DNA of 64,000 nt from Pseudogymnoascus verrucosus. Its lineage: Eukaryota. This document shows, piece by piece, positions 24,899 through 45,777 of this stretch. The stretch lies in the NCBI GenBank assembly GCA_001662655.1, contig KV460228.1; one strand, given 5' to 3'. Position 1 is the first letter of the stretch. Each line of letters begins with the position of its first letter. The notes under the pieces are model-generated. The model was not told where the DNA came from and did not search any database. It saw nothing but the letters and a program-made list of their open reading frames with translations. The translations under genes were made by a program, and so were the position numbers.

Positions 24899-27800
24899 AT
24901 GTCGGCGGCGGAGACGCTTCGTGCGAGAGAAGTGTACAGGTCAGTGACGAGACAATGCGGCCTGTTACAAGGACCTTACAAACTGTAGGTACTACCAACC
25001 GCGGAATATTCCAGAGTCTTCAGTCGAATCGGAATACTCTGCAGATAATGGCCCTTTGTCTCCAAGTCATGCCCCTCCAAAGGACACAAACTTTGATACG
25101 CAAAAGTCGTTCTCCGACACTGCGCTTACCGCCTTTGCCCAACTGATCGCACTCCGTCTTGACTCCCAAAGAGCCATTGTCTCTCTCATTGATCACGAGA
25201 ATGAGTATTTTCTGGCTGAATCAACGAGCAACTTGAGTCTTGTCGGTGACGATGGTCATGCTCAAAATGCGTCGCTATCTATCAGCGGGGCAAGGGTCCC
25301 GCGCGCGGCATCTCTTTGTGAGCAGACGCTGTGCCTTGTGCCAAACCAAGATACAGCAGCTGAAATGACTCCGGTGTTCCTGGTTCCAGATCTCCTCTTG
25401 GATGAAAATACGAGCCAGCTGGATTGCGTGAAAGGCGCGCCGTATCTGAGGTTCTATTGCGGGGTGGCTTTGACTAACAAGAGGGGCGTTAATATTGGCT
25501 GTGTTTATGTTGTCGACGACAGACCGAGGACCGACTTCAGCCTTGAACAAGCCCAGTTCTTGACTACAATGGCAGCTACGGTGATGGACCATCTCGAGAA
25601 TATTCGGGCGAAGGAAGACATTGTTAGAGTTACCATGATGAGCCAAGCTCTCCATGCTTTCGTTGAAGGCGAGGGCACGATGGACGGTGATTGGCAAAGA
25701 GTCAAGAAGTATAACCTTCCAGCTGGGGCTGGAGTGGGCTTCCTCTGGGAAAGCAATACGAATGACGTCGACGCATCTGTATCGACAGAATCTGCGAACT
25801 CCGCAACCGAGACCCTCATGAGCCAAACTCAATCTCCCCTGCAGCATAGCTCTAATAATCCGGATGCGCGTTTTAACTTCAATAACTCGCCCTGGAGCTC
25901 TTCCTCGTCACAAGTCCCAACGCTAAAGTCGGTATTTGAGGGCGCCGATGATGTCGCAAGAAAGATCACCAGCGGGAAGGACGCTGCATTTTCCAATGAC
26001 GGGTTTTCAAATCAGCTTCGTACAACGTTTTCTCGTGCCTCTAATCTTATCAGAGAAGGCATGGAAGTTGATGGAGCTGTATTCTTTGATGCCCCGTTCA
26101 GATTCTATCAGGGTCGCAGCACCCTTGAGACGGATCCACGCCGATTGGAAGGCAAGGACTCTGAAAGTTCGAGTGATGATGAAGTCAGGCCGGGACCACG
26201 CCCTCGTGTCCAGCGTTTGAAACGCGACGCCAACCACAGCAACGAGGGTGCAACCAAGTTGAAGTCCGACGTTTTAGGATATTCAACGCGAGAAACCTCT
26301 TCGTGGGCTGACCAAACCACAGGATCTGACGCCAGTTTCACTGCCATCGATCAGAGTCTCCTAACCTCTCTTGTGAGGCACTACCCTCTGGGAGAGCTTT
26401 TTGTGTTTGACGAGAATGGGCCGGTTATGCGCCCGGCGGATATCCCCTCGCCAGACGGATCACAAGTCACCATTAAAAACGCATCTTTCGACGCCAAGCT
26501 TGCCCGTCACAATGCTCGTAAACGAAGTGAGATTCTACGATTACTGAAAGCATTCCCAGGAGCCCGACAAATATTTTTCGTGCCCTTATATGATTCAACA
26601 TCTGGATGCTTTGTGGGATCTTTCGCTTGGTCAACCTCAGCGACTCGGATATTTTCTATTGAAAACCACTTGTCTTATCTCATAGCTTTTGGGCACAGCG
26701 TCATGTCAGAAGTCACACGATTGAATACAATGAGTGCAGACCTCGCAAAGGATGACTTCATCAGTAACGTTAGTCACGAGCTGAGAAGCCCGCTCCATGG
26801 AATTCTTGCAAGTGTGGAATTTTTGGCAGATACGGTCTTGGACGGATTTCAACGAAATCTAGTTGATACAGTAGACATCTGCGGCCGGACATTGCTGGAC
26901 ACTATCGAGCATGTTCTAGACTTTTCAAAGATCAAGAAGTTCGGACAGGTAAGTACGCAGCCGATGGGAAGTGTTGCAAACCTCGACGTCTCTGCAATTA
27001 TTGAAGAGGTGCTGGATGGTGTTTTCGCCGGATTCGAATTCAATGGACTATCTTCACAAGGCCTGGCGGATACAACCAAGAGCCGAATGAGAGAATCGTT
27101 GAACAGTCGTGATACAGATACCAAAGCGATGGATGAGCTCCAGTTTGACTTCTCTAATGATGCGCTTACAGTCATTATTGACATAGACTTCAGAGACGAC
27201 TGGCATTTTCCCACCGTCCCAGGAACCTGGCGACGTTTGACAATGAATTTGTTTGGGAATTCGTTAAAGTATACAAGTGATGGCTATATCAAGGTGAAGC
27301 TCGAAGCTCGAAGTATACCGTCTGTGAATCCAAGTGTGAATAGCGACAGTTTCGACAGAACCATGATTACTATGACGGTATCAGACTCTGGGCAGGGGAT
27401 GTCAAGTGAATTTATGAAGACGAAATTGTTCATGCCTTTCACGCAGGTTTGAAAGATCACATCCGATCTATTATGCTAGGTCTTTGTAATTAATGCTAAC
27501 TGAATCCAAGGAGAATGTGACAGCCCCGGGAACCGGCCTTGGCATGAGTATCGTGAAGCAAATCGTCGATTTGTCAGGTGGGGTAATCGAAGTTCACAGT
27601 GACCTCGGCAAGGGCACAGAGATGAAGCTTAGCCTACCCCTGGATGATCGTCTACGACGAGCGAGCGAATCGCCAGAGTTGATGATACCAACACCCGAAG
27701 ATTCCATTAGTGCTGTTCGACGCCGTGCTCGTGGGCGCACGGTTACCATCCGTGGATTTGACAATACGGCAGGGAAGTCGGATCTCCAGATAGAAGCGAT

Positions 27801-29191
27801 CACAAGTTTGAAGGCTTCGATCGTAAAATATGCCGAGGAATGGTTTAACCTGAAGGTTAACTCTGATAATTCGGTTGCTGACATTGTCATCTCGGATGAA
27901 TCCGAGTTCCTCAAGTCGACCAAACTCATAGAAGGTAGTTCGCAGCTATTGCTCATTCTCTGCAGTAACGGGGCTCGACGTGGTATCTACACATCTCAAT
28001 TTGAAGTCGGCCAACTTGTCGAGTTCATCAGCAAACCATGTGGCCCACATCGTCTAGCGAAAGCACTACTGAATATCCTCGACGCAGAGGATGCTCTCAA
28101 AAAGTCGAAAGCCGATCATGCCATCCAGGCGGAACCACAGGTTGGACTAGTCTTGCCTGTAGTCTCACCACAAAATACCAGGGTAAGTGCAGGTACTAGT
28201 AACTTGAGGCTATTGGGAGATTTGAAGTCACCTATCAGTTTCGCGCCAAATGCCATTTGTCTGGATATACAGCTGACGACGGGTTTTAAGGCTAGAGAAA
28301 CGGCTGAACCAAGACCAGCATTCATTCATAGGATGTCAAGTAATGTGGCTGTGAGATTGAACTCGAGCGATGTGCCGAGCGAAAATGCACTGAGCGAGCT
28401 ATTGAAAGGAACACTGATCTCAGAGTCTGCGGGTGTGAGTAATAAATTTTGTCCGCATATGCTACAGGGGTGGCTCTATCTCTTCGGAACAAGATTTAAT
28501 ACTGGATAGGTTACGGAGTCACCACCCGTCCCACTAGAGCCACCAAAGATGTTGTTGGTCGAGGTCAGTTTGAATGGGCACCAGGCAGACAACTAAGCTA
28601 CTGATTATATTGTAGGACAACCCAGTCAACATGATGCTACTTGCAACCTACATGAAAAGGAACGGCTGGGACTACGAAGAGGCAACGAACGGTTTGATAG
28701 CTCTACAAGCATTTCAAAACCGACCTCAGGGCTTCGATGTCATTTTCATGGGTAAGCTTTGCCACCTCCTGGTGATCACCAACTTTAGTCACCGGAACCT
28801 AATCACCTTCCGAATAGACGTATCCATGCCCATAATGACAGGCTACGAATCCACCCGCAAAATCCGCGCGGTCGAGGCCGAACGTCGCGCCGCTTACGGG
28901 GTCCAACTCCAATCCCTTTCATCGCCACCCACTCCGACCTCACCGCCTGCATTCCCATTCCCCACACCAGGACGCGTCACGGACCAACTACTCCCTGTCG
29001 AGACGCCGTTGCTGCAGCCGATCATCAGGCCGGCACTGGTCATAGCGCTGACGGGCTTCAGCAGTCAGAATGATCAGGAAATGGCGTTTGATTCTGGGAT
29101 GGATATTTTTATGACAAAGCCGGTGAGGTTTAGGGATGTAGGCAGTATTCTAGAGGGCTGGATGAAGAGTCGGGAGGAGAGGAGTTCATAG
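24899..29191 (+). CDS. Hybrid sensor histidine kinase (GAF-HisKA-HATPase-REC)
   Basis: Exon 1 MSAAETLRAREVYR; GAF region (PYLRFYCGVAL); H-box SHELRSPLHG; N-box NLFGNSLKYT; DSGQGM and GTGLG; receiver LLVE|DN, DVIFM|DVSMP and TKPV. The introns checked keep the frame. Confidence 0.93.
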
Positions 29192-30393: not shown

Positions 30394-30667
30394 ATGGAGA
30401 CCATCAAGAACGCCGCAAACTACGTCAGCGAGACCGTCCAGGGCAAGGGCGCCGAGGCTTCCAAGGAGGCCAACAAGGTAAGCATCACTCTACTACAATA
30501 GTAAGGATAGAACAGAAAACTAACTCTATTCCCAGTCTGTCGCCAAGGACAGCGACGCATCCCTCTCCAGCCGCGCCACCGCCGCTAAGGATGCTATCGG
30601 AGACAAGTTCAACGAGACCAGCCACAACACCCAGGCTGATGTCCACAAGGAGGCCGCTAAGCACTGA
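30394..30667 (+). CDS. grg1: Glucose-repressible protein Grg1 (Neurospora ccg-1/grg-1 family), 2 exons
   Basis: METIKNAANYVSETVQGKGAEASKEANK|SVAKDSDASLSSRATAAKDAIGDKFNETSHNTQADVHKEAAKH*; missing from the ORF track. Confidence 0.92.
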
Positions 30668-30939
30668 ACAACTCGAGAGTTCAACTGATCTCCAGTCACG
30701 AAATCATGACTAGGGTCGATGGGCGGGTGGCATTCCCGGAATAGGAGGACTTAATGGCGCCTGTATGATTAGCTAGGATTGGAAATCTAAGCCCATTCAT
30801 GCCACCTTAATTATTATACTTCTGAACAATGCTTGTGATTGAACTGTAACAAAAAGAAACTGGGTTTCGTAACAAAACGTAATTTGATTGAAAACATTAT
30901 TGCTCCCACACGACTCGCTAATACTTTCATGTTAAATAA

Positions 30940-32822
30940 TCAAATCTTGTCCTCTTCTGAGCTCTTCCCCGCCACCACGTCAACGTGATCAAACTCCCCA
31001 GACCTTTTCTCGGTCTCCATGGGGATTTCGGATTCGGCATCTCTTTCCGCCTTCTTGGTTTCTCTTCTGTGAAGGAACATTCCAAGCATAAAGACTGCCC
31101 AAAAGAGACAGAGTAAGACGGTATTCACAGTGTAGCCCTTTCTCCATTTGGGTGCTAGAGAACGTTAGTATCTCTTCGTGGCGGGAAAGTATGATTCAAT
31201 CTTACCTTCAACCACTGGGAACACTGTGATTGGGTAGAATGAGAAGAAAGCCCATCCGACAGTCATCTGGAAAATAATATTAGTCACATACTCTCATATG
31301 CATCCAACAACAAAACTCACCATTGCTCCCGTCGTAAAGGCTCTTGCCTCTGCATCATCTTTCATAATGATGTTCACCCAAGGGAACAAAATCGGCGTAA
31401 CCGCAGAAGTTAATCCAAGTAGTAGATTAGCCGTGTCTAAAATCAAATAAGTTAGCAATTGTCATATAACTTGACAGGCATGAATATCTTACAATGTAGG
31501 CCAACCGGGACATCCCAGGCCAGAAGGACGAGGTTGCAAAACAACAGAATAGCGCAAACAACCGACGATATAATCCACAGAGGATAGATCATACACAACG
31601 AAGTTGCGAGGATAGCTGAGATAATGGCAAGACCTTGGACCGCAGTAGGAATGGTGTTGATCTGGGCGACTGTGTATGTTCCGTGCTTCTTGGCCTCGTC
31701 TTTAAGCCACAGACCCATTTGCCCTGTCGGATAAGACGAGCATTGAAAGCTGAAATGTCAGTACGATATCGAGACACTTGGGACAGGGTTTCTCACCAGA
31801 CATAACAGAGAACAGCAACGTATAGATGCCATCTCGTAAAGACCCTCTTCAACATAGCCTTCCCAATCTTCTTGCTAGGCTTGACACCGTCGTCAATCAT
31901 ACGCTTCCTTGCCAGCTCATGCTCAGCCTCGTTCATATACCAGATCCTTGGGCTCGACGGCAATCCGGGGAAGATCATATATCCAGCCAAAGCAATCGGC
32001 AAACTAATGCAGCCATCGATGATAAACAGCCACCTCCATCCCGATCGCCCCATGACACCGTTAAGGTTGTTGTAAGCCGCCGCCTGAAGATAACCTCCAA
32101 ACATGGCACCAGCGTTACTCGACACGTACCAAACGCCGGCTCTCTTAAACAGTTCGTCAGCGCGATACCAGGATGAGAGGATATAAAGCGATCCGGTGGA
32201 GGCGGGCGTCTCGAGAACACCGAGGAGGAACCGGAGACCGTAGATGTCGTACTCGTTGCGTAGGCGGCATTGGATGAAGGTCAGGGCCGACCAGGCAACT
32301 TCCATGCTGGGAACGTACCACCGCGCGAGGTGGGGGCGGGAGAGCAACATCATTGAGGGGATCTCGAAGAGCAAATATCCAACGTTGTAGAAGGTTCCAA
32401 ATAAGGAATACCTGGGTCGGGTTAGACATGCTTTGGTATCAGGTTGCTATAATAAAAACTTACTGGTTGCCATTCAGCTTCAGCTCTTCCTTCATTCCTG
32501 ATACGTATGCATTGTTTAGATTGGACTGATCTAGCCATTTAATGAAGACTATCCAGTGTTAGTAAGATATTTGCTTCCATGATCAGCTCGTGAGCCTCGC
32601 GCACTTACACATCAAGCAGCAAAACGGCATCAGCGTGTAATCGAGCTTCCTAAGAAGCTTGCGCTCTTCGACAGAGTAATGGCTAGGATACCAATCGAAC
32701 ATGTACATCCAAGCTTTCCAGATGGACCGCTTGGGAGGCACTCCTCTCTCCATGATTGACACCTCGTCGTCGGACTTAGCCACTGGCGTCGTGCCAGTCT
32801 CGGCCTGCTTAACTTCAGCCAT
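30940..32822 (-). CDS. MFS transporter, anion:cation symporter family (allantoate/pantothenate permease-like)
   Basis: [53 protein letters not shown] and [13 protein letters not shown] motifs; multi-exon. Confidence 0.92.
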
Positions 32823-33436
32823 AATTGAAAAGAGGGTCTGTTAAGGTTAAGAGACCGGTGAGGTGGCAGGTGGGTGTTGATCGTCCAGAGTCGGTCGGCA
32901 GCCGCGACTATTAAGTAGAGGTTGAAGTTAGAGAGGCAGTCCGTGTCGATTCTTGGCGGTAAAGCCACAGCGATGCGAACAGGACAAATGGATAGTGATG
33001 GGCGCCATTTTGTCCGCATCCGACAAGCAATTGAATGGCAAGCTTGTGTTTCCTGGGGTTCTGATGTTGGATCCCGTCGGGCAACGGAGTGTTGACAGCG
33101 GAGTTTGCGGGGTATTGGTAGCCCGACCCCCTTTAACGAGGTCCCATGTGGTGGTGGATACTAGCGCCGGCAGCGAATTGTCCCACCCGGGTGAATTTCT
33201 CCGTTATCACTTTGCCATCAGTGAACTTTGCCGCTCTGAACTTTGAGGCGTATTATGGATCACGATGTGGATTTGGGAATAAGAAGAGTTCCAAGACGGG
33301 TTACTTAAATCATGACATAGGTATCGGTCTGCTTTCTCCCGTGTCCAGCCTGGCTCGACTCTGCATAGCTTGCGATAGAATAAACTTCTTCTCTAACGTA
33401 CTCTCGCTCATTTTAGGCATCACGGCTATTACAACG

Positions 33437-35003
33437 ATGACTGAATTACAGATTCACCGCAATTATGGCCCTCTTGCCGCTGGGAATAAACTCTCACAAT
33501 TCCATGAAGTCCCGTCAACACACAGCACGGCCAGCACAGTCTCCATCTCACAGGTCCCAAAAGCCGAGGACGTAGCTTCCATTCTTTTGAATACTAGCCA
33601 ACCCAAGGACGGGGAACTACAGCAACTTTTCGCAGAAAACATAGCAGCAAAACTATGGCGTGTTGCACAACGAGACCTGAAGGATAACGTGATTTGGCCC
33701 ATATATTTCCGATTTCACCAGTTCAAATGACTTACACTACATCTAGGATCCTCCAACTGCTTACCCTGAGATTGTCCCTCAAGAGGGCTCGCAGCAGGGC
33801 CGCTATGAGCTCCGTGAAGCAAGTTTCTGGACCTGTGGATTTTTCCCTGGCTCGCTATATACACTATTGGAGCGAGAAACTCGGTATCCAGGCTCGCAGG
33901 GATATCCGCTGCCCCGGAAGACTCTCCTCGCTCTATGCCGAGCATGGGCGGAGCCTCTCCATGCAATGGCCACAAGGACCGACACACACGACATTGGGTT
34001 TATTGTCGAGCCTGCCCTGCGGCTTGACTGGGAGCTTACGGGTAATCGACGCAGTCTGCAGTCTATCGTTACTGCTGCGTACAGTCTGGCCACACGATAT
34101 GTGGCGCCATCAGGGGCTATTCGCAGCTGGGACTTGATCCGCAAGAAGGACGTGAGCATTATCTCCATGGAAGAGAACAATATCGTCATCATAGATAGTC
34201 TATGCAACTTAGACCTGCTATTCTACGCTTCAGCATATACTAAAGACACCACTCTGGCGACAATCGCCCGCACGCATGCCCATACCATGCTAACATCCCA
34301 CCTCCGCCTTGAATCTGGCATCGCAGCATCAATAACAGGATACTCTGGGCCTATTTACTCGACCTGCCACGTCGCCAATATCGATCCGAAAACTGGTGCT
34401 ATAAAGCAACGCCTCACGGCCCAAGGCTATGCCACGGATTCAACCTGGGCGCGAGGTCAGGCATGGGCTATTTTGGGTTATGCACAGACGTATATGTGGA
34501 CCAAAGAGCGCATATTTCTCGATGCTGCGTGTGGATTGACCGAGTACTTTTTGCGGCGTCTAGGTCCCGGATACAATGTCCCCCCCTGGGACTTTGATGC
34601 GCCAGTTGAGAATCCAGAGAAGCCCGTCTTTGACTCCTCAGCAAGTTCTATTGCAGCCAATGGCATGATGATCTTGTCCGAAGCTCTCGTGGCGGATGGG
34701 CAGCTTGCCATTGCAGAAAATTTCCGTATTGCAGCGATTGATGTGGTAAAGGGGCTCCTCCGGGGCGCACTTGCTGAGGAAAAGGCGAGGTTCGTTGTTG
34801 ACGGTTCACAAAAAGGGTCAGAGAACGACACGCTAGAGATAGAAGACGTCCTGGCTGGAAGCACTTTCGATGGCATACTTAAGAACGGAACAGCGAACAA
34901 TAACGTGGGCGCAAATCGCAGGTACGCAAACCATGGTTTGGTTTATGGGGATTATTATCTGCTTCAGTTTGGCAATCGACTTCTTCGGATGGGGTTGATA
35001 TGA
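33437..35003 (+). CDS. GH88 unsaturated glucuronyl hydrolase, no signal peptide
   Basis: Intron 33689-33746 joins in frame; FWTCGFFPG, THDIGF, IIDSLCNLDLL, TAQGY..STWARGQAW, WDFDAP, DSSA and LVYGDYY motifs. Confidence 0.92.
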
Positions 35004-35156
35004 TATACACATGGGATATAGAGCGCATTGGCATTTTCATTCATTGTAAATTTGCTAGAATAGCGGGGCTGCAAACACATTGGTTGGGATTGCCCTGAAG
35101 TTGAACATTTACTTAGAACTATAGATACACTGAATCATCATCAACAATTGACCACC

Positions 35157-38064
35157 TTATTCCCATCCATCCATATTTGCCGCGAACATTCCCTCATCGT
35201 AACTAATGACCCGATCTCTATCCAGAAATTGTTGGTTGAGGAACATTTGCGAGATATATGTGAACTCATCCGGGACTATATCGTTTCCCTGCATCACCGA
35301 GACATTCGGTCGCTGCATTAAGGGGTATTGCTGTTGACTGACAGGAAGTTGAACTGGTGTTGGATCGATGCTTATTGGTGTTCGCAGCTCGCCGGTCGGT
35401 GGGAATGTCCCCTCGCGCCCTGCCGTCCTACTTGAGCCGTTGGCTTGATATCCGCTGGCAGCTTGGTCCTCGCTCTTAGCTACGTCTTGGACCTCTGGAT
35501 TTTGGACGTGGTTAGGTTCATTCATTGACCGTCGTTGGCTGTTTTCTTCCGTCCTTTCAATGATATCTTCCTCGTCACTGGAGTCTTCTTGGTCTATGTT
35601 AACCACTTGGGGACTATTGATACTGTCGACTCCCAGTTCATTGGCGTAGGCAAGAACACCAATTCGAAAGCCCACGTCGTTTACGCATTTCTCATGCATG
35701 CGGCGAAGCAAGCCTGCATATTTAGCAGCTAGGTTCGCGTGGCCTGTAGTGTTTAGTCTCGGGGAACCTTCCCATCGATTAGAGAGAGCATCGAGGCTTT
35801 CGATAAGCTTGAAAAATTCGGGGAGGGGATGTTTATCCTCATAATATCTCCAGTGAACTATATGAATTAGAAAACAATACATTCGAATAATGTGATAAGA
35901 GGCGCATCTTACCCAGTAACACTCTCGCTGCGAGAAATACACAGAAGGTGAATTGGCTGTTGACTATTTTGCTAGTCGTTGGACTCCAAAGATATTTTTC
36001 TGTTATACTCGACGTCTCTAGAGCTGCAGTTTGACACGTATCCGCGCTGCAACGGCTTGGAAGCCGGGTTGCCCAGTCCCAGTTCTCCGGGGGATACGCA
36101 ATCAACTGATGCAATAGTATCATAGAAGCGTTGTGTGTGATGTGTGCGAGCGTTAAGTTGGGATCCATTATAATCTCGGTTGGTCGTCGTGAGATGTTGG
36201 TATCCTTCCATTTTCCTGGCAAAAACATCTTCCAGCTAGGGAGGTTGTGTTAGAATGAGTTGGCAGGCGGAGGGGAGAGAGAAACTATCTTACTGTACAA
36301 GTCGCAAATCCAGCTCTTTGAACCTCATCAACCAGCTACCAATCTGTTTTTGGTCCGAAAGGTTTACTTTTTGTTGAAGGAAATAGGTCGTAACGCGACT
36401 CATAGACTCAGTGGCTTCAATGCAATAGGCGAACGCTCCGACGGATGACATCGCCTCGGTATTATTGTTCTGACCAAAATTCGACATCGATCCCGGGCTC
36501 TGGTGCTCCTCTTCGGGGCTCTGCGCAAGAGTGGGGTATTGTGTTGTTAAGTACGCGATGGAGTTTCCTATCCTTCCAGCCGACTTATCCCATATACCAA
36601 AGTAAGGGGCTGTTACCGCTTCTCTCTTCCGCCATAGGACACCGTCTACTGGAAGCCTTCGATGAACATCGTCGGATGTGAGGCTGGTGTTCCACCTAAA
36701 AATCGGTAAGTAAAGGGGCAAGTATTGAATGCTATCGTGAGAGCGTACCCTGTCATGACTGAACATAGCCTAAACTAGTCAATATACCAACCAGCAACGA
36801 GTGTATTGCCTCACTTACCGATCCATATTGAAAATATTCCAGAACACTCTTCGCCTTGTCTCCGTCTCGGTCCAGTCTTTACATGATGGAACAATAGGAC
36901 ATGGCTTGAGTAATGGTTGCTCGTCAGTATCATCAACCTCGACACTCAGTTGGAGATATTCCACGGTGCGGGTAAGAGAGCCCACGATCGACCATGCGCT
37001 GTTCGCCTCGCCTCTTCCGATCTATTCTCATTAGATATAATCAATACATATTCAGGGTGCTACAAGCATACATAGTCAAAGGCAATAATGAGCAGAGCCT
37101 GAAGGTTCTCGACCGATAACGAGCCAAATGCATGGAGCAGTACCCAGTCTCGGGAGCGCTTTGTCAACTTCAATGTGCGCCTAATGCTTGCCGGTGTATC
37201 CGGACGTATGACCAACCTCACCGCTGCAACTACCATAGCATGCAAGATTGCCTCGATATTTTCATCATATACTTGTTCCGCGAGTTGCTGTCGGAAACTG
37301 TTCTCGTGCAGCATGGGAAGCCACGGATGGACCTGGGAGAAGTAGTTGTCCAAGACGCCATCCAGCAAGTATGCAGAAGATTGCTTGTCCAGGGAATCTG
37401 AACACAATACTAGTTCTCCCCAATTGAAATTTCCTTCTGATATCAAGCGCCTCCGTTTTGCTTGATGGCGAGGTGAGAACTCAGCTGACCGCTTAAGGCC
37501 TTCTACCAATTGGCCCTCTGGTTGAGTTGGGCCTTGAGATGAGGCAGTGGTTCGACGATTATTCATAATTTTAAACTCTCTCATTTCCCTTTCGAATAAT
37601 TGCAAGAGCTCGGAAGCTTCTCGCGGCCTGTGGTCGTCGCCATTACGCCACGCAGGGCTTGGCGCATACCCAGAGCTCTGAGCTGACTCAGTTTGTTGCT
37701 GCAACTGCTGCAACAGTTGCTCAACCCTGTCTAACAAAGAATCAGTAATAATTGCAAAGTATCGCCCATAAAAATAAGTGGCAATACAAACAAAATGGCA
37801 TTGCAGTACTAACCCACTCTCCTATTCAAGTTTTCCACCGCCCCGGGCTTCAAGCCGGGTTTCTCGCGTGCTTCGTAAACACATCCAGCCCCTAATCACG
37901 CAGACGATTAGCATCAGGAAAGCCTATTGGACTGAGCTGTGTTTACCCAGCCTTCTGCACTCCTTGCAAGCCGGTAGCTCCTTTGAACAGCCAAGCTTAC
38001 GTCGCCGACATTCCCGACATGCGGGTCTGGTGGAAGCGGGAAGTGGAGTTTGCGATGAATCCAT
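35157..38064 (-). CDS. Zn(II)2Cys6 transcription factor with fungal TF middle domain
   Basis: [25 protein letters not shown], then C and RAKPGLK after an intron; [13 protein letters not shown] and [12 protein letters not shown] motifs. Confidence 0.92.
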
Positions 38065-38189
38065 TCTCCGGCCCAAAAATAATAATCGCCAGGTAAAGGA
38101 GCTGTCTGACACTTTCCGGTTGACGGGTTTACCTTTATACAATGCCCGCTGCCCTTTGCCCGTTCTCCGCCACAGTAATCCCGAATACC

Positions 38190-38256
38190 GAACCCCGCAA
38201 AATTAAGCCCCACAAATCATATTGACCCCCGCAAACTATCCCTGCTCTTCCCCGCA
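38190..38256. promoter_or_regulatory. Cluster of CreA/Mig1-type SYGGRG sites in the divergent TF / DUF2264 promoter
   Basis: CCCCGC at 38193, 38227 and 38250, and CCCCAC at 38208. Confidence 0.5.
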
Positions 38257-38555
38257 CCAGCCTAACTGCCGCAAGTCAACCACTCATCCGAGACCTTCTA
38301 GTCCCCGAAAGCACCTGCTAGCATCGGCGCGCGTATCTTTTCTGTTGAAGGTAATATTTATGTTTTTATGTATTGCGAGATTATTATGCGTCGATAGCTA
38401 ACCCGAGGAACCAGAGTAGTACGAAGTGGCGTGACTGGAGTGAACATAGGAAAGCTTCAATATTGCTTCCGACCTTGATGAATGCCTAAAAGATCTTCTA
38501 ACTTGCCATTTCTGTCTTGTTCTCGCAGTGTTACTGCTCTCCCATCAATCCCAAT

Positions 38556-40797
38556 ATGCCACCGCTACTTGGGTTTTCCGATAATCCATTCCAGTCCCGC
38601 GATGATGTCTTGCAAGCTGCCACATCCCTCCTCAAACCTCTAACGCCTTACAAGTCACCGTGCGGCGCCAGGGTCAAGTTGTCCACTGCAACAGGAACAG
38701 GGTTTGATGAAATCTCAGCTCAACTCGAAGGCTTTGCAAGGCCACTCTGGGTTGTTGCGGACTTACTCGCAGCGCAACCCACCACGTCCGCGACCGCCTC
38801 CGGGGATCTAGATCTCTACTCATGGATTCGCGGACTGGACGCTGGCGTTGATCCGCGTTCGGATACGTTTTGGGGCCATACAGGAGAGCATGATCAACGC
38901 ATGGTGGAAATGGAGCCCATAGCATATGCGCTCTTGACCGCCCCTACGGCATTTCTATCAGCGCTCCCGAACACACCAGGTTCGGACTCTCAAGTGGATC
39001 AGCAAAAGAGAGACCGAATTGTAGCCTGGTTGCGGTTAATAAATGAAAAGACAGTTCCCCCATCAAACTGGCGTTGGTTTAGAATTCTGGTGAACCTGGC
39101 ACTGGTAAAATCCTGTGGGGTTCCCTACGATGAGGTCAAGCCATTTATAGACGTTGATTTCAAAATGCTGGACTCGTTTTATATCGGAGATGGTTGGTCA
39201 TCAGATGGTCTATGGTCTGCGGACAAGAGGCAAGCAGATTACTACTCGGGCAGTTTTGCAATTCAGTACTCGCAGCTGGCGTACGTCCGTTTCGCACGGG
39301 ACCTTGATCCCGAGAGGGTCGAGCGTTATCGATCGGAAGCTGGAGAATTTGCAGCGACCTTTTGGAGGTACTTCGATGTTAATGGTGAGTTTTTTGCAAT
39401 TCACAAGCCCTTAGAACCTGCATTGGATGTGCATTATCTGACGTGTCAAAGGCGCTGCCATCCCATTTGGTCGGAGTCTGACGTACCGTTTTGCATTTGC
39501 GGCATTTTGGTCGGCAGCGGTCGTTGCTGAAATTCCTCTTCCAGCCCCATTAAATGATATGGGCGTCGTCAAAGGACTTTTGTTGCGCCACCTCCGTTGG
39601 TGGGCAAAGCAATCCGATATCTTCAACACAGATGGAACCCTCAATATCGGTTATACTTACCCAAACATGTTCATGAGTGAAGATTATAACTCGCCACAGT
39701 CGGTCTACTGGTGTTTGAAAACATTCTCGGTTCTTAGATTGAGTGAGGATCATCCTTTTTGGCAATGTGAAGAGCTCCCCCACCCTCTCTCAACAAATAC
39801 TCTATCTCATGAGCTGGGCAATCAAAATGATACAAGTCTCAGCCCTTTTGGTGTCGTTAACCCCGCCGCGCAAATCACCTGTAGTCTCCCAGAGCATCAC
39901 TTCCTCCTCTCCGCAGGACAATCGACGCAAAAGCCGCACCGAGCCAGAGAGGCCAAATACAGCAAACTCGCATACTCGTCCGCATTCGCATTCAGTGTTC
40001 CAGTCGGCCCTCTCCTCTCCCAGATGGCACCCGACAGCACTCTATCAGTTAGTAATGACGGTGGCGACACATGGAAAGCTCGATGGGAGCCAGAATCTGC
40101 TCGGATCAAGTCAGTTCAACTCACGTTAGAGGGTCAAAAAGATAGTGGGCCGAAAACTACCACTGTACCGGTCCTCATAAGCGCGTGGCGGCCGTGGAAA
40201 TCTACTGATTTTAAGATTGAAACTATCCTTATTCCTCCCTTGGAGAGGTGGCCGGGATGGCATGTCCGTGTACACGTATTGACTTGGAAAGCCCAATATT
40301 CAGACTCGTTGTTCCAGTTAGTGGATGCGGGTTTTGCAATATCAAGTGAAGGAGTTACAGGGGTTGTTCTGCCTACTCTTACCCCGGAGCTGAGAGACTT
40401 ATTGTCCAGTGAAGATGAAAAGGCAACAGACGCGGCCCAAGAAGGTATTTGGGAAGGAGATTATAATTGCTTAGTTCTTTCCGACGCAGGAGCGAGTGGT
40501 ATCGCTGATTTATCGGCCGGAGCCCAAAAACGACCACCCATCGATCCTGTATTTGGCGGTCGTGAGTGTCGAAGCGATCTCTTGAGGCCAGATTCAAACA
40601 CAAATTTGGTGGCACAGAGATCTCGCATTCCCTCGTTGCATCACCGCTTCCAGGTCCAAGGTAATTCTAGCGAAGCATGGCTTATCACAGGGATTTTTGC
40701 TGTGTCTAGTTCTTCTGGATTAGATAATGCCAGTATCAGAGAGCTATGGCGGGACAAACCGCGCCTGGACGTAGAGGAATATACCAATATATTATAG
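38556..40797 (+). CDS. DUF2264 protein (GH154 beta-glucuronidase-like), no signal peptide
   Basis: [42 protein letters not shown] and, across an intron, [13 protein letters not shown]; also [11 protein letters not shown]. Confidence 0.88.
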
Positions 40798-40922
40798 AGC
40801 TCGACCATCCTATCATGCCCTAGAAGTAGTTTAAATAGACAGCAAAGCGTGCAAATATAATTTAATTATTATCTACTAAATGTTAAAATTATCCAATAAG
40901 GATTCTCAACTATAGTGTTTAA

Positions 40923-43700
40923 CTAAGAATTCCAAGTATCAAGAGCATCTCTTGCCAGGGCCAAATTCTGGATAACAGCCAACCCATACTGAGCGACATC
41001 ATTTGACCCGAGCCAGGGCGCTTCATCAAGAGCCACCAAGACTGAGCTACCACTCATATGGGTAGTATTCCAGGGTGTGTTTGGACCAAGACCATCCGAG
41101 TTCAAGAGATCGCGCCACGCTCGCTTGGCCAACGTCGTGTTGCTGGTCTGGTGAGCGGCGTACGCTGTGAGACGCGAATGAGCCTGTAGCAAGCTGATGT
41201 CCTTGAACTTAACTCCATAACGAGCTACCTGTTCGTCACCAGTTGCTGCATAGTAATAACAGTAGTCGTACCATGCGTCTTTGAAACCTGCTGGGAGGTC
41301 ATCGCCGTAGTACTCGATGGCCTCGGAGACTACTTCGGGGAGACCAAATACGGCTGACAGATGAGAGACATCGACGAGACCTTTGTTGTCGGGATCCAAT
41401 GGAGGGGGGCCTAAGGTGCTGTTCTGAAGACTGTACAATCCGGATCCAGTGACAAAGCCATACTTGAGATTAGCGATGCTGGTGATTGTGCTCGTGAGCT
41501 TAGTCTTTGCCTCTTCCCATCTAAGTCCGCGGCGCTCCCATTCAATGAGCCATCCACTGGCAAGAGCAGACCAATCGGTTCCCAGACTGAATGCAACCGT
41601 TGAGTTAGGGGTTGGAACCCAGCCATCTTTGCGCACTTTTCTTTGAGGGTCCAGAATTCCGTACGTCGTCTCCGTGTCCAGAAGCTCATCGAATAGCTCT
41701 CCGATCCGCTCGTCACCGCCGGAGAGGTAGTAGAAGTACTTGCGGTATTGCGGTTGCGAAATACGGGCTTGCTTTGCGCTATCAGCCCAATGCTGGACAC
41801 CGTGGCGGGTGCCCAAGCCCTTCCAATCACCAATGTGGTAAACATCGACCTCACCAGTGTGGCGGGTGAGAGCCTCTGCGAATCGGTAGACATCTTCTCT
41901 ACCAGTGCGTAGGAAGTATTGCCAGAAAAATAGGTCGGGGGAAAGCTCGGAGTTATCCCAGCCATACCCACCCACATCGTAGCGCCAGGTATGCCTATCT
42001 GTATCGTAGCTATGCATGAAATCGCCGTAATTTAGGAACCCGTACCACCTGCGTTGCTCGACTTCTTTTTGATATTGCTTGAAAAGGAAATCGAGGTGGC
42101 CCTCAATCTCTGCAGAACGTGCACTAGTGGTATCAGGCAGTCCCCAGTAGGACCCAAGGGCCTTTGTTTTCTGAATATATGCGGGTTCTGCCGTCAGAAC
42201 AGGTGGGTTGTTCATATGTTCTGTCAAATCCGATAGTGTGTCTCTCGAAGGCGTCTTCTCAAAGCCAAATATGAAGACTTCACTTGTTCTAGCAATTCCA
42301 TAAGGAGTATTGAATCCCGGTTCGTAATCTTCATATGTGATTTCAAGAGCGTCCAACTGATCGGCATAGGTTGTCTGGTTCAGGCCATCATGGTAAGGGC
42401 GAAGATCTAATGGTTCTGCCGCTGGGTCGTAAAGCCACACCGTGATCTCTCCGAGGTCTGAGGCAGCATTGGAGATGTCAAGACCACTAGGATAGCGCTT
42501 CCAGAAGTCACGTAGTCCCACGGCCAGTCCACCTTGTGTAGCGCCTCCAAGATATGCAAGTCCGCCAGCGCGTGTACCTCCAGAAATGTTGATCCAGCTT
42601 TGTCCAGCTTTGGTGCGTTTCTTCAGGGTGAAGCCATCGGAGGATAGTTGAGACAGGCTGTAGTCGCCCCAAGCTGGGATCCACTTCATTCTGGTCGACA
42701 CACGCGTATCCCAGGTACTAATGTCTGGAACCACAACACCATCATACTGTGCAGTCCTCACGGCTGCTCCAGGATCTCTCCTTAGGCCGGTGATCCCTTT
42801 CACCGCTTCGCTGAGAAGGCCGCCATCAACACCAGCAATCCTAACATGGCGATTGTATAGTTCTTCTCCTTTCAGAGGGACTCCGAATCGGATCCCCAGG
42901 CCGGTGATGAAATTCTTCTCGGCAGGTGCATCAAACACGAGACTGTGGACAAGGCGAATGGCATCGGAGTTAGAGTACAGGTAGAACCGCAGGACGAATG
43001 GAAGCCAGTCATCATGAGGGCCTCCACTAGTGACTTGATGCTTGCCACGGACGGTGACCAAGGCACGCACGGAATTCTGCTTTCCCACTGTAACTCCCTC
43101 AATTTTACTCGCGAAGTTGAGGTTCTTAATCGGCTGCTTTCCACGGCTATCGGAGTTGGAATCCACACCCGACTGGCTTTGAAGAACAAGTCGACCATCT
43201 TGCCCAATTATCTTCCCACCTGCAGTCTGGATCGTATCAATGATGTTGCTGCCTGATTTCGGGAATGACACTTTCAGTTTGCCCGTGTCGACGGTAATCT
43301 TCTTTGCGGTGTCGGTAACCTTCAACTTATTTTTGCTGTTCGTGCTGGCAGACTCAACGGATGCGGCCGACTTTGAAGCAGTCACGGTGTATTCGTCGAG
43401 GATGTTCTCAGATGCTGCAATTGCATGTCCAGTCCACTTGACCGAGCCATCAGACCAGTAGCCAGTCACCCATGACTGGAGATCGACCTGGTTGGATCCG
43501 CTGGAGACGGTAAACTTAGTTTTCTTGGGATCATGCTGACCCTGTGCCCATGGGACACCAAAGGTTGTTCCAAGGTTGTGTGCCGGCTTGTCACCAAGCC
43601 AATGCACAGTTGCCGCGCTCGAGGAGCCAGAATTGGTAGTGGGTGAAGCCGTGCCCAATCCAAAGAAGCCGCAGAGGGCAATATAAACTGGGGTCCGCAT
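40923..43700 (-). CDS. Secreted PL26 exo-rhamnogalacturonan lyase (PcRGLX/YetA-like), intronless
   Basis: Signal peptide MRTPVYIALCG...; TTFGVPWAQG, YWSDGSVKWTGHA, RRWYGFLNYGDFMHSYD, WRYDVGGYGWDNSEL, RHTGEVDVYH and LGTRHGVQHW motifs. Confidence 0.88.
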   Translation of the reverse strand: MRTPVYIALCGFFGLGTASPTTNSGSSSAATVHWLGDKPAHNLGTTFGVPWAQGQHDPKKTKFTVSSGSNQVDLQSWVTGYWSDGSVKWTGHAIAASENILDEYTVTASKSAASVESASTNSKNKLKVTDTAKKITVDTGKLKVSFPKSGSNIIDTIQTAGGKIIGQDGRLVLQSQSGVDSNSDSRGKQPIKNLNFASKIEGVTVGKQNSVRALVTVRGKHQVTSGGPHDDWLPFVLRFYLYSNSDAIRLVHSLVFDAPAEKNFITGLGIRFGVPLKGEELYNRHVRIAGVDGGLLSEAVKGITGLRRDPGAAVRTAQYDGVVVPDISTWDTRVSTRMKWIPAWGDYSLSQLSSDGFTLKKRTKAGQSWINISGGTRAGGLAYLGGATQGGLAVGLRDFWKRYPSGLDISNAASDLGEITVWLYDPAAEPLDLRPYHDGLNQTTYADQLDALEITYEDYEPGFNTPYGIARTSEVFIFGFEKTPSRDTLSDLTEHMNNPPVLTAEPAYIQKTKALGSYWGLPDTTSARSAEIEGHLDFLFKQYQKEVEQRRWYGFLNYGDFMHSYDTDRHTWRYDVGGYGWDNSELSPDLFFWQYFLRTGREDVYRFAEALTRHTGEVDVYHIGDWKGLGTRHGVQHWADSAKQARISQPQYRKYFYYLSGGDERIGELFDELLDTETTYGILDPQRKVRKDGWVPTPNSTVAFSLGTDWSALASGWLIEWERRGLRWEEAKTKLTSTITSIANLKYGFVTGSGLYSLQNSTLGPPPLDPDNKGLVDVSHLSAVFGLPEVVSEAIEYYGDDLPAGFKDAWYDYCYYYAATGDEQVARYGVKFKDISLLQAHSRLTAYAAHQTSNTTLAKRAWRDLLNSDGLGPNTPWNTTHMSGSSVLVALDEAPWLGSNDVAQYGLAVIQNLALARDALDTWNS

Positions 43701-44637: not shown

Positions 44638-45777
44638 TCATTTAGCGTATGCCGCAATAGCTGGCTCGGTGAAAACATGGGTCTTGTACGCGACGATGTT
44701 GGGAACAGCAGTGAGCAAGATGCTTTCACCCGTGATGCCGTTCAGACCTGGGGCAGCCAAAGCCCAGCATAGCGTCGCGGTATTCAATCGAGAGCGGTTT
44801 CCTGGTCCATCATGGGTGAGTGCATCTTCGATGAGAGCCCAAGCAACTGCATTGTACAGAACACCTTCGTGGAGAACAATTTGAATGGTACCAGGGCACA
44901 TATCTTGGACCTGGTTGTTTGAGACACCGACATTGCGAGCATCCAACATAATAGAAGACGCGCCAGCTCCAGACTCTGGCTGGACAATCTCATCGGTGGC
45001 GCTGTAGAAAGTTGTGGTGGGAACATATGCGCTATCGCCGCCGTTGCTTCGGAACGTGGCGATGAAGTTCGACTTGTCTCTTTGTTGTTTGATCGATGGT
45101 GTGCAGAGCGCAATGGTCAATCCGCTGCAGACCAAGTCGGCCTCAATAGTGCCCCTGAAATCTGGGGCGAGAGCCACGAAATCGGACACGACGCTCCTTG
45201 TCGACGGCCAGTACTTCAAGCCCCACTGTGTATTGATGCCTCCCTGGGACCATGAAATCACAGAGATGTTCTTCTGCTGGCTGACGCCAGAAAGGTAGTT
45301 CATGGCGTAGGCCACGTATTCACCATTCACCTGCGCGTCTCCCAAACTATAGCCGGGGATGTTGAGCCATACTGGGTCTGCGTAGGTGGAAGCAGCCAAC
45401 AGCTTTCCAAAGGCATTCGAATATGATACCCCTCCTGGAAGCGAAGTTCCGGGAACCAGGAGCACCGGTTGCTTTCCGGTCTTGCCATACTGGAAGGTCG
45501 ATGGGATGTAGATGGCGCTGCGGAGGGTGTTCTCGTCTACCGAGTAAGGGGCATCTCCGGCAGCCTTCTTGGGATAGATCGCGGTAGCTGGGTTGATGGT
45601 GTTCTTGTTGTTAGAGGAGTTCACGCCAGTCGTCTGTCGTGCTTCCAGGGCCTGTCGTGCCTCGAGGGCCTGACGCGCCTCGATGGCCTGGCTGATCTCG
45701 GGGGTTGGCACGGCCGAGACATGAGAAGCCAAAGCTAATAACGAGGCATAGCTCAGGAGAGTAGTGAAGCACTTCAT
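44638..45777 (-). CDS. Secreted lipase B (CalB-like alpha/beta hydrolase)
   Basis: Signal peptide; PVLLVPGT, DAQVNGEYV, SWSQGG nucleophile elbow, APDFRGT, YSATDEIVQP and LHEGVL (putative catalytic His). Confidence 0.92.
   Translation of the reverse strand: MKCFTTLLSYASLLALASHVSAVPTPEISQAIEARQALEARQALEARQTTGVNSSNNKNTINPATAIYPKKAAGDAPYSVDENTLRSAIYIPSTFQYGKTGKQPVLLVPGTSLPGGVSYSNAFGKLLAASTYADPVWLNIPGYSLGDAQVNGEYVAYAMNYLSGVSQQKNISVISWSQGGINTQWGLKYWPSTRSVVSDFVALAPDFRGTIEADLVCSGLTIALCTPSIKQQRDKSNFIATFRSNGGDSAYVPTTTFYSATDEIVQPESGAGASSIMLDARNVGVSNNQVQDMCPGTIQIVLHEGVLYNAVAWALIEDALTHDGPGNRSRLNTATLCWALAAPGLNGITGESILLTAVPNIVAYKTHVFTEPAIAAYAK

Follow-up and report, generated by a model that had tools for sequence, protein, structure and literature searches.

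A PUL-like four-gene module predicted to strip uronic acid from oligosaccharides, with an accessory PL26 gene, in Pseudogymnoascus verrucosus

Five contiguous genes encoding an MFS transporter, a GH88 protein, a Zn2Cys6 transcription factor (TF), a DUF2264/GH154 protein, and a PL26 lyase occupy positions 30940..43700 of a 64,000-nucleotide stretch (the window) of Pseudogymnoascus verrucosus. The first four genes are a conserved unit with an interchangeable fifth, and PL26 is an accessory member kept in few lineages. The four-gene module has perhaps an even chance of acting in the cytosol to strip terminal uronic acid from imported oligosaccharides by a dehydrate-then-cleave route. These oligosaccharides would plausibly come from arabinogalactan side chains of pectin attacked by PL26.

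All five genes are intact, and each is an open frame once spliced (Table 1). Intergenic gaps are 614, 153, 491, and 125 bp in order from MFS to PL26. The spliced gene models confirm the layout given in an earlier note on this DNA, two divergent pairs (MFS/GH88 and TF/DUF2264) plus the lyase, which is convergent. The spliced DUF2264 product matches public protein P0463 at 724/724 residues, and the PL26 product matches P0372 at 925/925. Sequencing-run contigs skip all six MFS introns exactly and the TF intron at 36235/36294, and one contig has letters matching the 21-nt TF micro-exon. These contigs come from four runs of one study on related strains, their RNA nature is a guess, and at contig level depth cannot rank genes and uncovered bins are uninformative. 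GTGATT is a weak donor for the single GH88 intron, which is absent from the joints listed in the run contigs. One public GH88 model (P0554) has 97 extra N-terminal residues; in all seven of the other orthologues inspected from Pseudogymnoascus, the protein begins with MTEL. Signal peptides were called by hydropathy only. Within the first 40 residues, the top 11-mer scores 2.19 in PL26 and at most 0.79 in the other four proteins, in line with a signal peptide on the lyase only.

Table 1. Positions of the genes and candidate regulatory repeats in the window
Feature	Position	Strand	Description
MFS transporter, probably ACS-type	32822..30940	-	7 exons, 520 aa
GH88 unsaturated uronyl hydrolase (predicted)	33437..35003	+	2 exons, 502 aa
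Zn2Cys6 transcription factor	38064..35157	-	8 exons, 834 aa
Two-domain DUF2264/GH154 protein	38556..40797	+	2 exons, 724 aa
PL26, PcRGLX homologue	43700..40923	-	intronless, 925 aa
Two CGG-N11-CGG direct repeats, MFS/GH88 promoter	33085..33203	33085-33101 +, 33187-33203 -	candidate sites of local factor
Three CGG-N11-CGG direct repeats, TF/DUF2264 divergent promoter	38146..38197	-	

The gene linkage is more than chance. The genome has six GH88 loci, and these coincide with the six loci of the TF subfamily (6/6). A transporter is nearby at all six and DUF2264 at four, and a GH88 is found no more than 8 kb away at 4/5 DUF2264 loci. A lyase gene lies within 10 kb at 5/6 GH88 loci and belongs to one of four families: PL26 (C23), Alginate_lyase2 (C1), Polysacc_lyase PF14099 (C12 and C63), and Hepar_II_III, PL33-like (C10; E 6.5e-39). 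PDB searches gave no match for the C63 and C12 candidates. At least 19 such lyase genes occur in 30.2 Mb. For a lyase this close, a uniform null calculated by hand gives ~1.3% per locus; CAZymes cluster, so this figure makes the linkage look more significant than it is.

Synteny elsewhere was assessed from metagenomic loci and locus tags. Among 29 metagenomic GH88 loci of at least 9 kb, MFS is present in 23, TF in 19, DUF2264 in 19, and all three in 12. The window gene order recurs in loci L038-040, L050, and L052. Conserved linkage in other genomes had been proposed as a test of the cluster, and the core was found across ascomycete classes. The model organism A. nidulans has the DUF2264 gene (AN8424). 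Neighbors vary. GH5 is found at 15/80 metagenomic GH88 loci, many of them near-identical, and the L058 core lies beside an endo-beta-1,6-galactanase homologue (E 1e-145) and a GH16. The L058 GH88 belongs to a clade other than the window's, and no recognised glycanase lies beside any orthologue of the window's GH88 clade. Searches of the PDB gave no subfamily for the GH5 or GH16 neighbors. Locus L096 is an exception, with a probable GH2 beta-glucuronidase neighbor.

The only matches of a DUF2264 alignment in prokaryote genomes were two contigs with introns in a bacterial MAG. Rhizobium plasmid locus L136 encodes a heparinase II/III, ABC transport, GH88, and a two-domain DUF2264. This enzyme set is that of the C10 fungal copy, with 33%, 32%, and 26% identity to the fungal DUF2264, GH88, and lyase, but L136 is a bacterial operon with ABC transport in place of the fungal MFS. 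Two haloarchaeal DUF2264 loci have GH78 and an oligogalacturonate lyase, and one also has GH88. Among the literature matches listed, drawn mainly from open-access journals and for broad topics being the best 30 of 202, 25 of 96, 15 of 117, and 30 of 35, no paper describes the fungal module.

The cluster works like a PUL and is not one. It has the co-localised, conserved CAZymes, transporter, and regulator of the Bacteroidota PUL definition, but the transporter is an MFS and not a SusC/SusD pair. Of the PUL-like five-gene unit proposed earlier, a probably ACS-type transporter, predicted cytosolic enzymes, and a local regulator are supported, and PL26 as a fixed member is not. The MFS protein has a Pfam MFS_1 match. 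Its best NCBIfam match, from one exon only, is TIGR00893 (D-galactonate, ACS-type; E 1.8e-24; 86 bits, where the cut-off is 395). It is probably an importer of acidic oligosaccharides.

The Zn2Cys6 factor, which may resemble RhaR, has Zn_clus and a weak Fungal_trans match. No member of its subfamily was found away from GH88 in the genome, and this supports the earlier claim of a dedicated local regulator. GH88 and TF distances correlate weakly (rho 0.22, 99/2000 permutations). CGG-N11-CGG was found in all ten orthologous MFS/GH88 promoters, in the six TF/DUF2264 spacers tested, and in 2/14 other regions of the genome tested. The local factor may bind these repeats. Ungapped words of 7-9 nt in the promoters came close to the maximum from shuffling. 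The fungal L-rhamnose (LRA) cluster with RhaR/PDR-1 also combines catabolic genes with their own Zn2Cys6 activator, and in both systems CGG half-sites are 11 bp apart (PMC4245848, PMC5469009). RhaR binds an inverted CGG-X11-CCG (PMC4245848, PMC5469009), whereas the conserved repeat in the window is direct, and the window TF subfamily, unlike the LRA cluster, is tied to GH88. No LRA genes were found at the six TF-subfamily loci among ORFs scanned. On pectin, every araR deletion strain of A. niger shows lowered expression of a putative unsaturated glucuronyl hydrolase gene.

The PL26 protein has three PcRGLX domains (PF19501, PF21345, PF21346) and, like the secreted PcRGLX of Penicillium chrysogenum (5xq3), which it matches at 1440 bits over residues 26-924, carries a predicted signal peptide. 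PL26 exo-lyase activity on RG-I is described in a review, and the window protein is predicted to be a secreted exo-rhamnogalacturonan lyase. It differs from PcRGLX in its linkage to GH88/DUF2264, which is confined to Pseudogymnoascus and some Penicillium. PL26 adjoins DUF2264 in 13/14 Pseudogymnoascus genomes. Outside the genus it is linked in 2, unlinked in 34, and ambiguous in 1 of 37 genomes, counted by hand among genomes comparable by locus tag or contig, with unlisted paralogues not seen. The linked genomes are Penicillium canariense, by tags 6352/6354/6355, and P. brasilianum, where the accessions differ by 4 and the contigs are equal in size. PL26 is present at 0/80 metagenomic GH88 loci, a check in which 20/23 loci had at least 1.5 kb downstream of DUF2264. 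Prokaryote genomes scanned with PL26 gave nothing. In the trees, which were quick and FastTree trees only, with no one-clade test, 88 GH88 rows, and loci covering <55% of the query dropped, the Penicillium genes and those of the window fall in different clades. Recent whole-cluster transfer between Pseudogymnoascus and Penicillium was therefore rejected, and the PL26 linkage is old or repeated.

PL26 could be a bystander by descent, with the core serving an unrelated uronide such as glucuronan of fungi or bacteria, polyuronate of algae, or a small-molecule glucuronide. This reading is unlikely. It is favored by the full core occurring without PL26 in most fungi, by synteny inside one genus, which requires no selection, and by the closest transporter paralogue in the genome (70%), which belongs to the C12 copy of the module and goes with a PF14099 lyase. 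The core promoter motif is also lacking at PL26, with no CGG-N11-CGG in 937 bp upstream, weak evidence as 0.42 is expected; A. niger GaaR, AraR, and CreA words are not enriched there either. The two Penicillium linkages in separate clades argue against a bystander, as does the recurrence of lyase neighbors at GH88 loci of the genome, where a lyase in this position is the pattern.

In another reading, all five genes form one regulon. PL26 would free unsaturated GalA-Rha, the MFS would import it, the window GH88 would cleave it, and DUF2264 would re-prime saturated RG-I ends. The 125-bp gap between PL26 and DUF2264, their old or repeated linkage, and lyases at four other GH88 loci support this regulon. 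Unsaturated GalA-Rha, however, is described as a GH105 substrate, not a GH88 substrate. The window GH88 has no Pfam hit, including PF07470, and matches eight PDB sequences, all GH88 (best E 3e-31 to 3wiw). Ten of ten pocket positions examined in the GH88 UGLs of Bacillus sp. GL1 (1vd5) and Pedobacter (3wiw) are kept (D88, D149, W42, H87, W134, H193, Q211, W219, R221, W225). UGL D88 and D149 correspond to D166 and D234, and UGL W42, a tryptophan missing from YteR, corresponds to W112. The window protein comes from a longer fungal clade than these UGLs, missed by PF07470, and has neither the PF07470/YteR-type sequence nor the missing W42 of GH105. These features place it in the GH88 family, with predicted hydrolysis of unsaturated glucuronyl linkages; according to a 2011 review, no fungal GH88 was characterised by then. 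Three PF07470 genes lie elsewhere in the genome, one of them on C86 between an MFS and a PL4 in a separate locus. The gene adjoining a Pseudoalteromonas PL26 shares 63% identity with this C86 GH105-type gene and has no match to the window GH88. Together with the unlinked PL26 of most other fungi and its missing motif, these observations make the single regulon unlikely. The straight line from PL26 product to window GH88 drawn in the earlier note is not supported, given the GH105 substrate, the separate C86 locus, and a core mostly without PL26.

The window DUF2264 protein is probably a uronate 4,5-dehydratase, judged from sequence and a predicted model. It has DUF2264 (PF10022, E 2.8e-123) and DUF2264_C domains. 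BcGDH, a GH154 member of Bacteroides caccae, was described in 2025 as a glucuronate dehydratase that primes GH88 (PMC12269599). BcGDH residues E74, R78, N177, W178, F181, Y229, R285, Y289, and Y354 correspond by profile alignment, not 3D superposition, to window E58, R62, N171, W172, F175, Y230, R284, Y288, and Y355. Nine of ten active-site residues are thus identical, including catalytic Y230, R284, and Y288, and these nine are present in 81-82/82 fungal homologues. The tenth, BcGDH N176, is S170 in the window and N in 55/82 homologues. GH154 structures rank first for the predicted model (pLDDT 81.7), with a first Foldseek match at E 1.8e-11 and, to 9o4u, E 3.3e-9, and VIA gave Z 30.6 to 8oi4 (363 residues, rmsd 3.5; next Z 18.6). 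The model also resembles two-domain lyases in overall shape (TM ~0.45). Identity to BcGDH is ~22-24% in the structural match. B. caccae PUL25 (BcGDH, 9o4u/9nwf, with BcGH88 and PL35; PMC12269599) likewise has GH154, GH88, and a lyase in one locus, with the GH154 fold shared. The window, in contrast, is eukaryotic and intron-containing, has an MFS in place of SusC/D, a Zn2Cys6 regulator, and PL26 as its lyase, and its DUF2264 has a beta-sandwich domain beyond the one domain of BcGDH. BcGDH and BT3677 differ in substrate (PMC12269599), so GH154 membership alone does not fix specificity.

A true beta-glucuronidase acting parallel to GH88, as GH154 was first described and as the earlier note has it, is very improbable, since purified BcGDH showed no glycosidase activity, BcGDH and BT3677 showed dehydratase activity, no GH154 member has a hydrolase-type active site (PMC12269599), and dehydration explains the GH88 pairing. 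With the active-site residues kept here, the beta-glucuronidase label is probably wrong for the window protein.

In the preferred dehydrate-then-cleave route, an ACS-type carrier would import short acidic fragments. DUF2264 would dehydrate a saturated non-reducing beta-D-glucuronate to its 4,5-unsaturated form, as BcGDH does. GH88 would then hydrate the double bond and free 4-deoxy-5-keto-uronate and a sugar, as expected of its family. Fragments already unsaturated by a lyase would bypass the dehydratase. The Zn2Cys6 factor may activate both divergent promoters via the conserved CGG-N11-CGG. The front-end secreted enzyme would be interchangeable, with PL26 in this role at the window. There it would attack the rhamnogalacturonan-I backbone of a pectin/arabinogalactan complex, and glucuronate-capped galactan side chains would feed the core. 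The PL26 product may go mainly to an unlinked GH105-type enzyme, the weakest step. Cores beside galactanase/GH16 and GH5 were counted for the dehydratase model because these hydrolases leave saturated ends. PL26 lies next to DUF2264 in Pseudogymnoascus and nearby in two Penicillium species of another class, which is consistent with a closer connection than this route assumes. The five-gene cluster has no gene for breaking down the keto-uronate that GH88 would release.

A broader proposal, speculative and rather unlikely, is an ascomycete family of modular PUL-like uronate loci. It would combine three elements: a Zn2Cys6 subfamily that duplicates with GH88 and senses unsaturated uronate; a uronate dehydratase in eukaryotes; and an exchangeable secreted enzyme at the front (PL7-, PL20-, PL33-like, PL26, GH5, GH30). 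In its boldest form, two-domain DUF2264 would eliminate 4-O-methyl or 4-O-rhamnosyl, not water, and the window's PL26-linked GH88 would cleave alpha-derived unsaturated GalA-Rha, ordinarily a substrate for GH105.

GH88 and DUF2264 genes occur commonly in fungi, where they are annotated as pectin-related or hypothetical. The module offers a testable role for both and would extend the dehydratase and GH88 route from bacteria to eukaryotes. A new subfamily of regulators also emerges, together with a candidate for its DNA motif. AN8424 puts knock-outs and assays within reach in a model organism, and the varying neighbors of each module copy may help to predict the acidic glycans that a fungus consumes.

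The window encodes the five genes that the earlier note placed at 30940..43700, namely an MFS transporter, a GH88 protein, a Zn2Cys6 transcription factor (TF), a DUF2264 protein, and a PL26 lyase, all intact in spliced models. Families were assigned from Pfam, NCBIfam, and PDB matches. Gaps between successive genes are 614, 153, 491, and 125 bp. All six MFS introns and one TF intron are skipped as modelled in contigs that come from a single study (four runs, presumably RNA). A hydrophobic N-terminus occurs in PL26 alone among the five genes, in agreement with the claim that only the lyase carries a signal peptide. Top matches of GH88, DUF2264, and PL26 are Pseudogymnoascus proteins. The open frame upstream of GH88 is part of one public model (599 aa) and missing from 7 orthologue models; this extension is probably a wrong start. 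The lipase-like flanking ORF has no Pfam match and was not seen beside the module in 80 metagenomic loci.

Features of the window and of other contigs (C1 to C86) of G000, the genome of this fungus
Feature	Location	Length	Remarks
MFS	32822..30940	520 aa	spliced model
GH88	33437..35003	502 aa	spliced model
Zn2Cys6 factor	38064..35157	834 aa	spliced model
DUF2264 protein	38556..40797	724 aa	spliced model
PL26	43700..40923	925 aa	model
Open frame	33146-33436		upstream of GH88 start
Hybrid histidine kinase	24948-29191		GAF, HisKA, HATPase, receiver; immediately left of cluster
Grg1 gene	30395-30668		flank
Secreted lipase-like ORF	44638-45777		flank; short internal repeat
Larger polyuronate cluster	C1:2086-28952 (L025, L026, L131)		near contig end; GH88, DUF2264 (one pocket tryptophan replaced by histidine), TF, Alginate_lyase2, sugar transporter, SDR, two PF05426 alginate-lyase genes
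PL33-like lyase locus	C10:147793-161687 (L018, L019)		TF, DUF2264, GH88, sugar transporter; lyase without evident signal peptide
Delta-endotoxin N-terminal/jacalin ORF	C12, L022:3-1499		adjoins DUF2264
PF14099 lyase match	C37:293479-294123		15 TAG and 6 TAA stops; looks like heavily mutated pseudogene, possibly through RIP
Second PL26	C38:232003-239214 (L037)		about 40% identical; with GFO oxidoreductase, esterase, sugar transporter
Gene near GH88	C63:95035-96078 (L034:35-1078)		1.2 kb upstream of GH88
Candidate canonical RG-I locus	C86:4100-9333 (L133)		MFS, GH105-type gene (BglB by NCBIfam), PL4 lyase

Four of the genes, all but PL26, make up the conserved unit. G000 encodes six GH88 loci, five DUF2264 loci, and six loci of the window's TF subfamily. 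GH88 and TF loci coincide in 6/6, each with a transporter nearby, and DUF2264 is present at four. A lyase lies within 10 kb at 5/6 GH88 loci: PL26 in the window, Alginate_lyase2 in C1, PF14099 in C12 and C63, and PL33-like Hepar_II_III in C10; none was seen in that neighbourhood in C32. Linkage also holds in other genomes. GH88 is one or two genes from DUF2264, by public locus tags, in Coleophoma, Xylogone, Truncatella, Chaetomium, Emmonsiellopsis, and Aspergillus nanangensis. MFS is encoded at 31, TF at 32, and DUF2264 at 26 of 80 metagenomic GH88 loci, several of which are near-identical, so that these figures are not independent. If only the 29 loci of at least 9 kb are taken, MFS is present at 23, TF at 19, and DUF2264 at 19, and 12 loci have all three. 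Among the papers that literature searches listed, none describes this fungal module. The C10 enzyme set is identical in kind to that of a Rhizobium plasmid operon (L136). Language-model features (score 0.95, the family being assigned to 19% of members) are the one basis for likening the C63 gene to the PF05426 alginate-lyase family; neither Pfam nor PDB gave a match. Intron-containing fungal GH88, TF, MFS, and DUF2264 genes in a record titled Deltaproteobacteria MAG (L129, L130) are probably mis-binned contigs.

PL26 is accessory to this core. It adjoins the module in 13/14 other Pseudogymnoascus genomes, the exception being split over small contigs, and is close to it in Penicillium canariense and P. 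brasilianum. It is unlinked in 34/37 non-Pseudogymnoascus genomes comparable by tag or contig (one ambiguous), a hand count from listed proteins that covers listed paralogues only. PL26 is absent from all 80 metagenomic GH88 loci, with room downstream of DUF2264 in 20/23. In trees, the window's genes group with those of Leotiomycetes, apart from the clades that hold the Penicillium genes; the linkage is therefore either ancient or of two separate origins. A reading of PL26 as a bystander beside the core, which its frequent absence would suggest, is rather unlikely; against it stand the linkage in the two Penicillium species and the lyase neighbour at 5/6 GH88 loci of G000.

The DUF2264 protein is probably a dehydratase, judged from residues and a predicted fold, and not the beta-glucuronidase that GH154 membership had suggested. 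BcGDH, a Bacteroides caccae GH154 protein, is reported as lacking glycosidase activity and dehydrating terminal beta-glucuronate, which yields a GH88 substrate; BT3677, also GH154, likewise dehydrates a different substrate (PMC12269599). Structure matches of a fungal DUF2264 profile (82 homologues) are to GH154 and no other family. Of the mutated BcGDH residues, 9/10 are identical here and kept in 81–82 of 82 fungal homologues, whereas N176 is replaced by serine. Y230, R284, and Y288 are kept in all four G000 paralogues. The predicted structure (pLDDT 81.7) first matches 8oi4, 9o4u, and 9nwf. A dehydratase role would explain why the core persists beside hydrolases leaving saturated ends, including an endo-beta-1,6-galactanase homologue (L058) and GH5 in 15/80 metagenomic GH88 loci. 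One module clade has a conserved, secreted GH5 directly upstream of GH88 (L074, L076, L077, L079, L081-083, L098, L103, L105-107, L112-114, L117).

The window GH88 probably does not mainly take the PL26 product. Unsaturated GalA-Rha is assigned to GH105, and a tryptophan of the GH88 protein UGL is reported missing from the GH105-type YteR (PMC4528949, PMC13501991); it is kept here. G000 encodes three PF07470 genes, all outside the window locus. That in C86, between MFS and PL4, is 63% identical to a gene adjoining a Pseudoalteromonas PL26. The proposed direct line from PL26 to this GH88 is quite unlikely as the main route. One point in its favour is that haloarchaeal DUF2264 loci lie among rhamnose and pectin genes. 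With that context, and no fungal GH88 assayed by 2011 according to a review of that year, alpha-specificity may apply.

A CGG-N11-CGG direct repeat is found in 10/10 orthologous MFS/GH88 promoters and 6/6 TF/DUF2264 spacers. In 500 resamplings, the best of 39 dyads never reached 10 promoters and reached 9 twice, a figure to be read with the relatedness of the promoters in mind. Of the 29 occurrences in the window, five fall within the two divergent promoters, against 0.5 expected, and none is upstream of PL26, where 0.42 would be expected. Only 2/14 other G000 regions have the motif, so each module copy may have its own. RhaR is reported to bind the inverted form, in contrast to this direct repeat (PMC4245848, PMC5469009).

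The most likely reading, at about even odds, is that the core removes terminal glucuronate from imported oligosaccharides, with PL26 acting on the same polymer complex and not as the main supplier of GH88. Oligosaccharides would be imported, dehydrated, and hydrolysed, and the local factor would activate the genes. Arabinogalactan side chains are a putative source, consistent with a report that an Aspergillus niger putative unsaturated glucuronyl hydrolase gene is AraR-dependent on pectin (PMC5617896). The module would work in the manner of a bacterial PUL, with linked enzymes, transporter, and regulator, but is without SusC/D.
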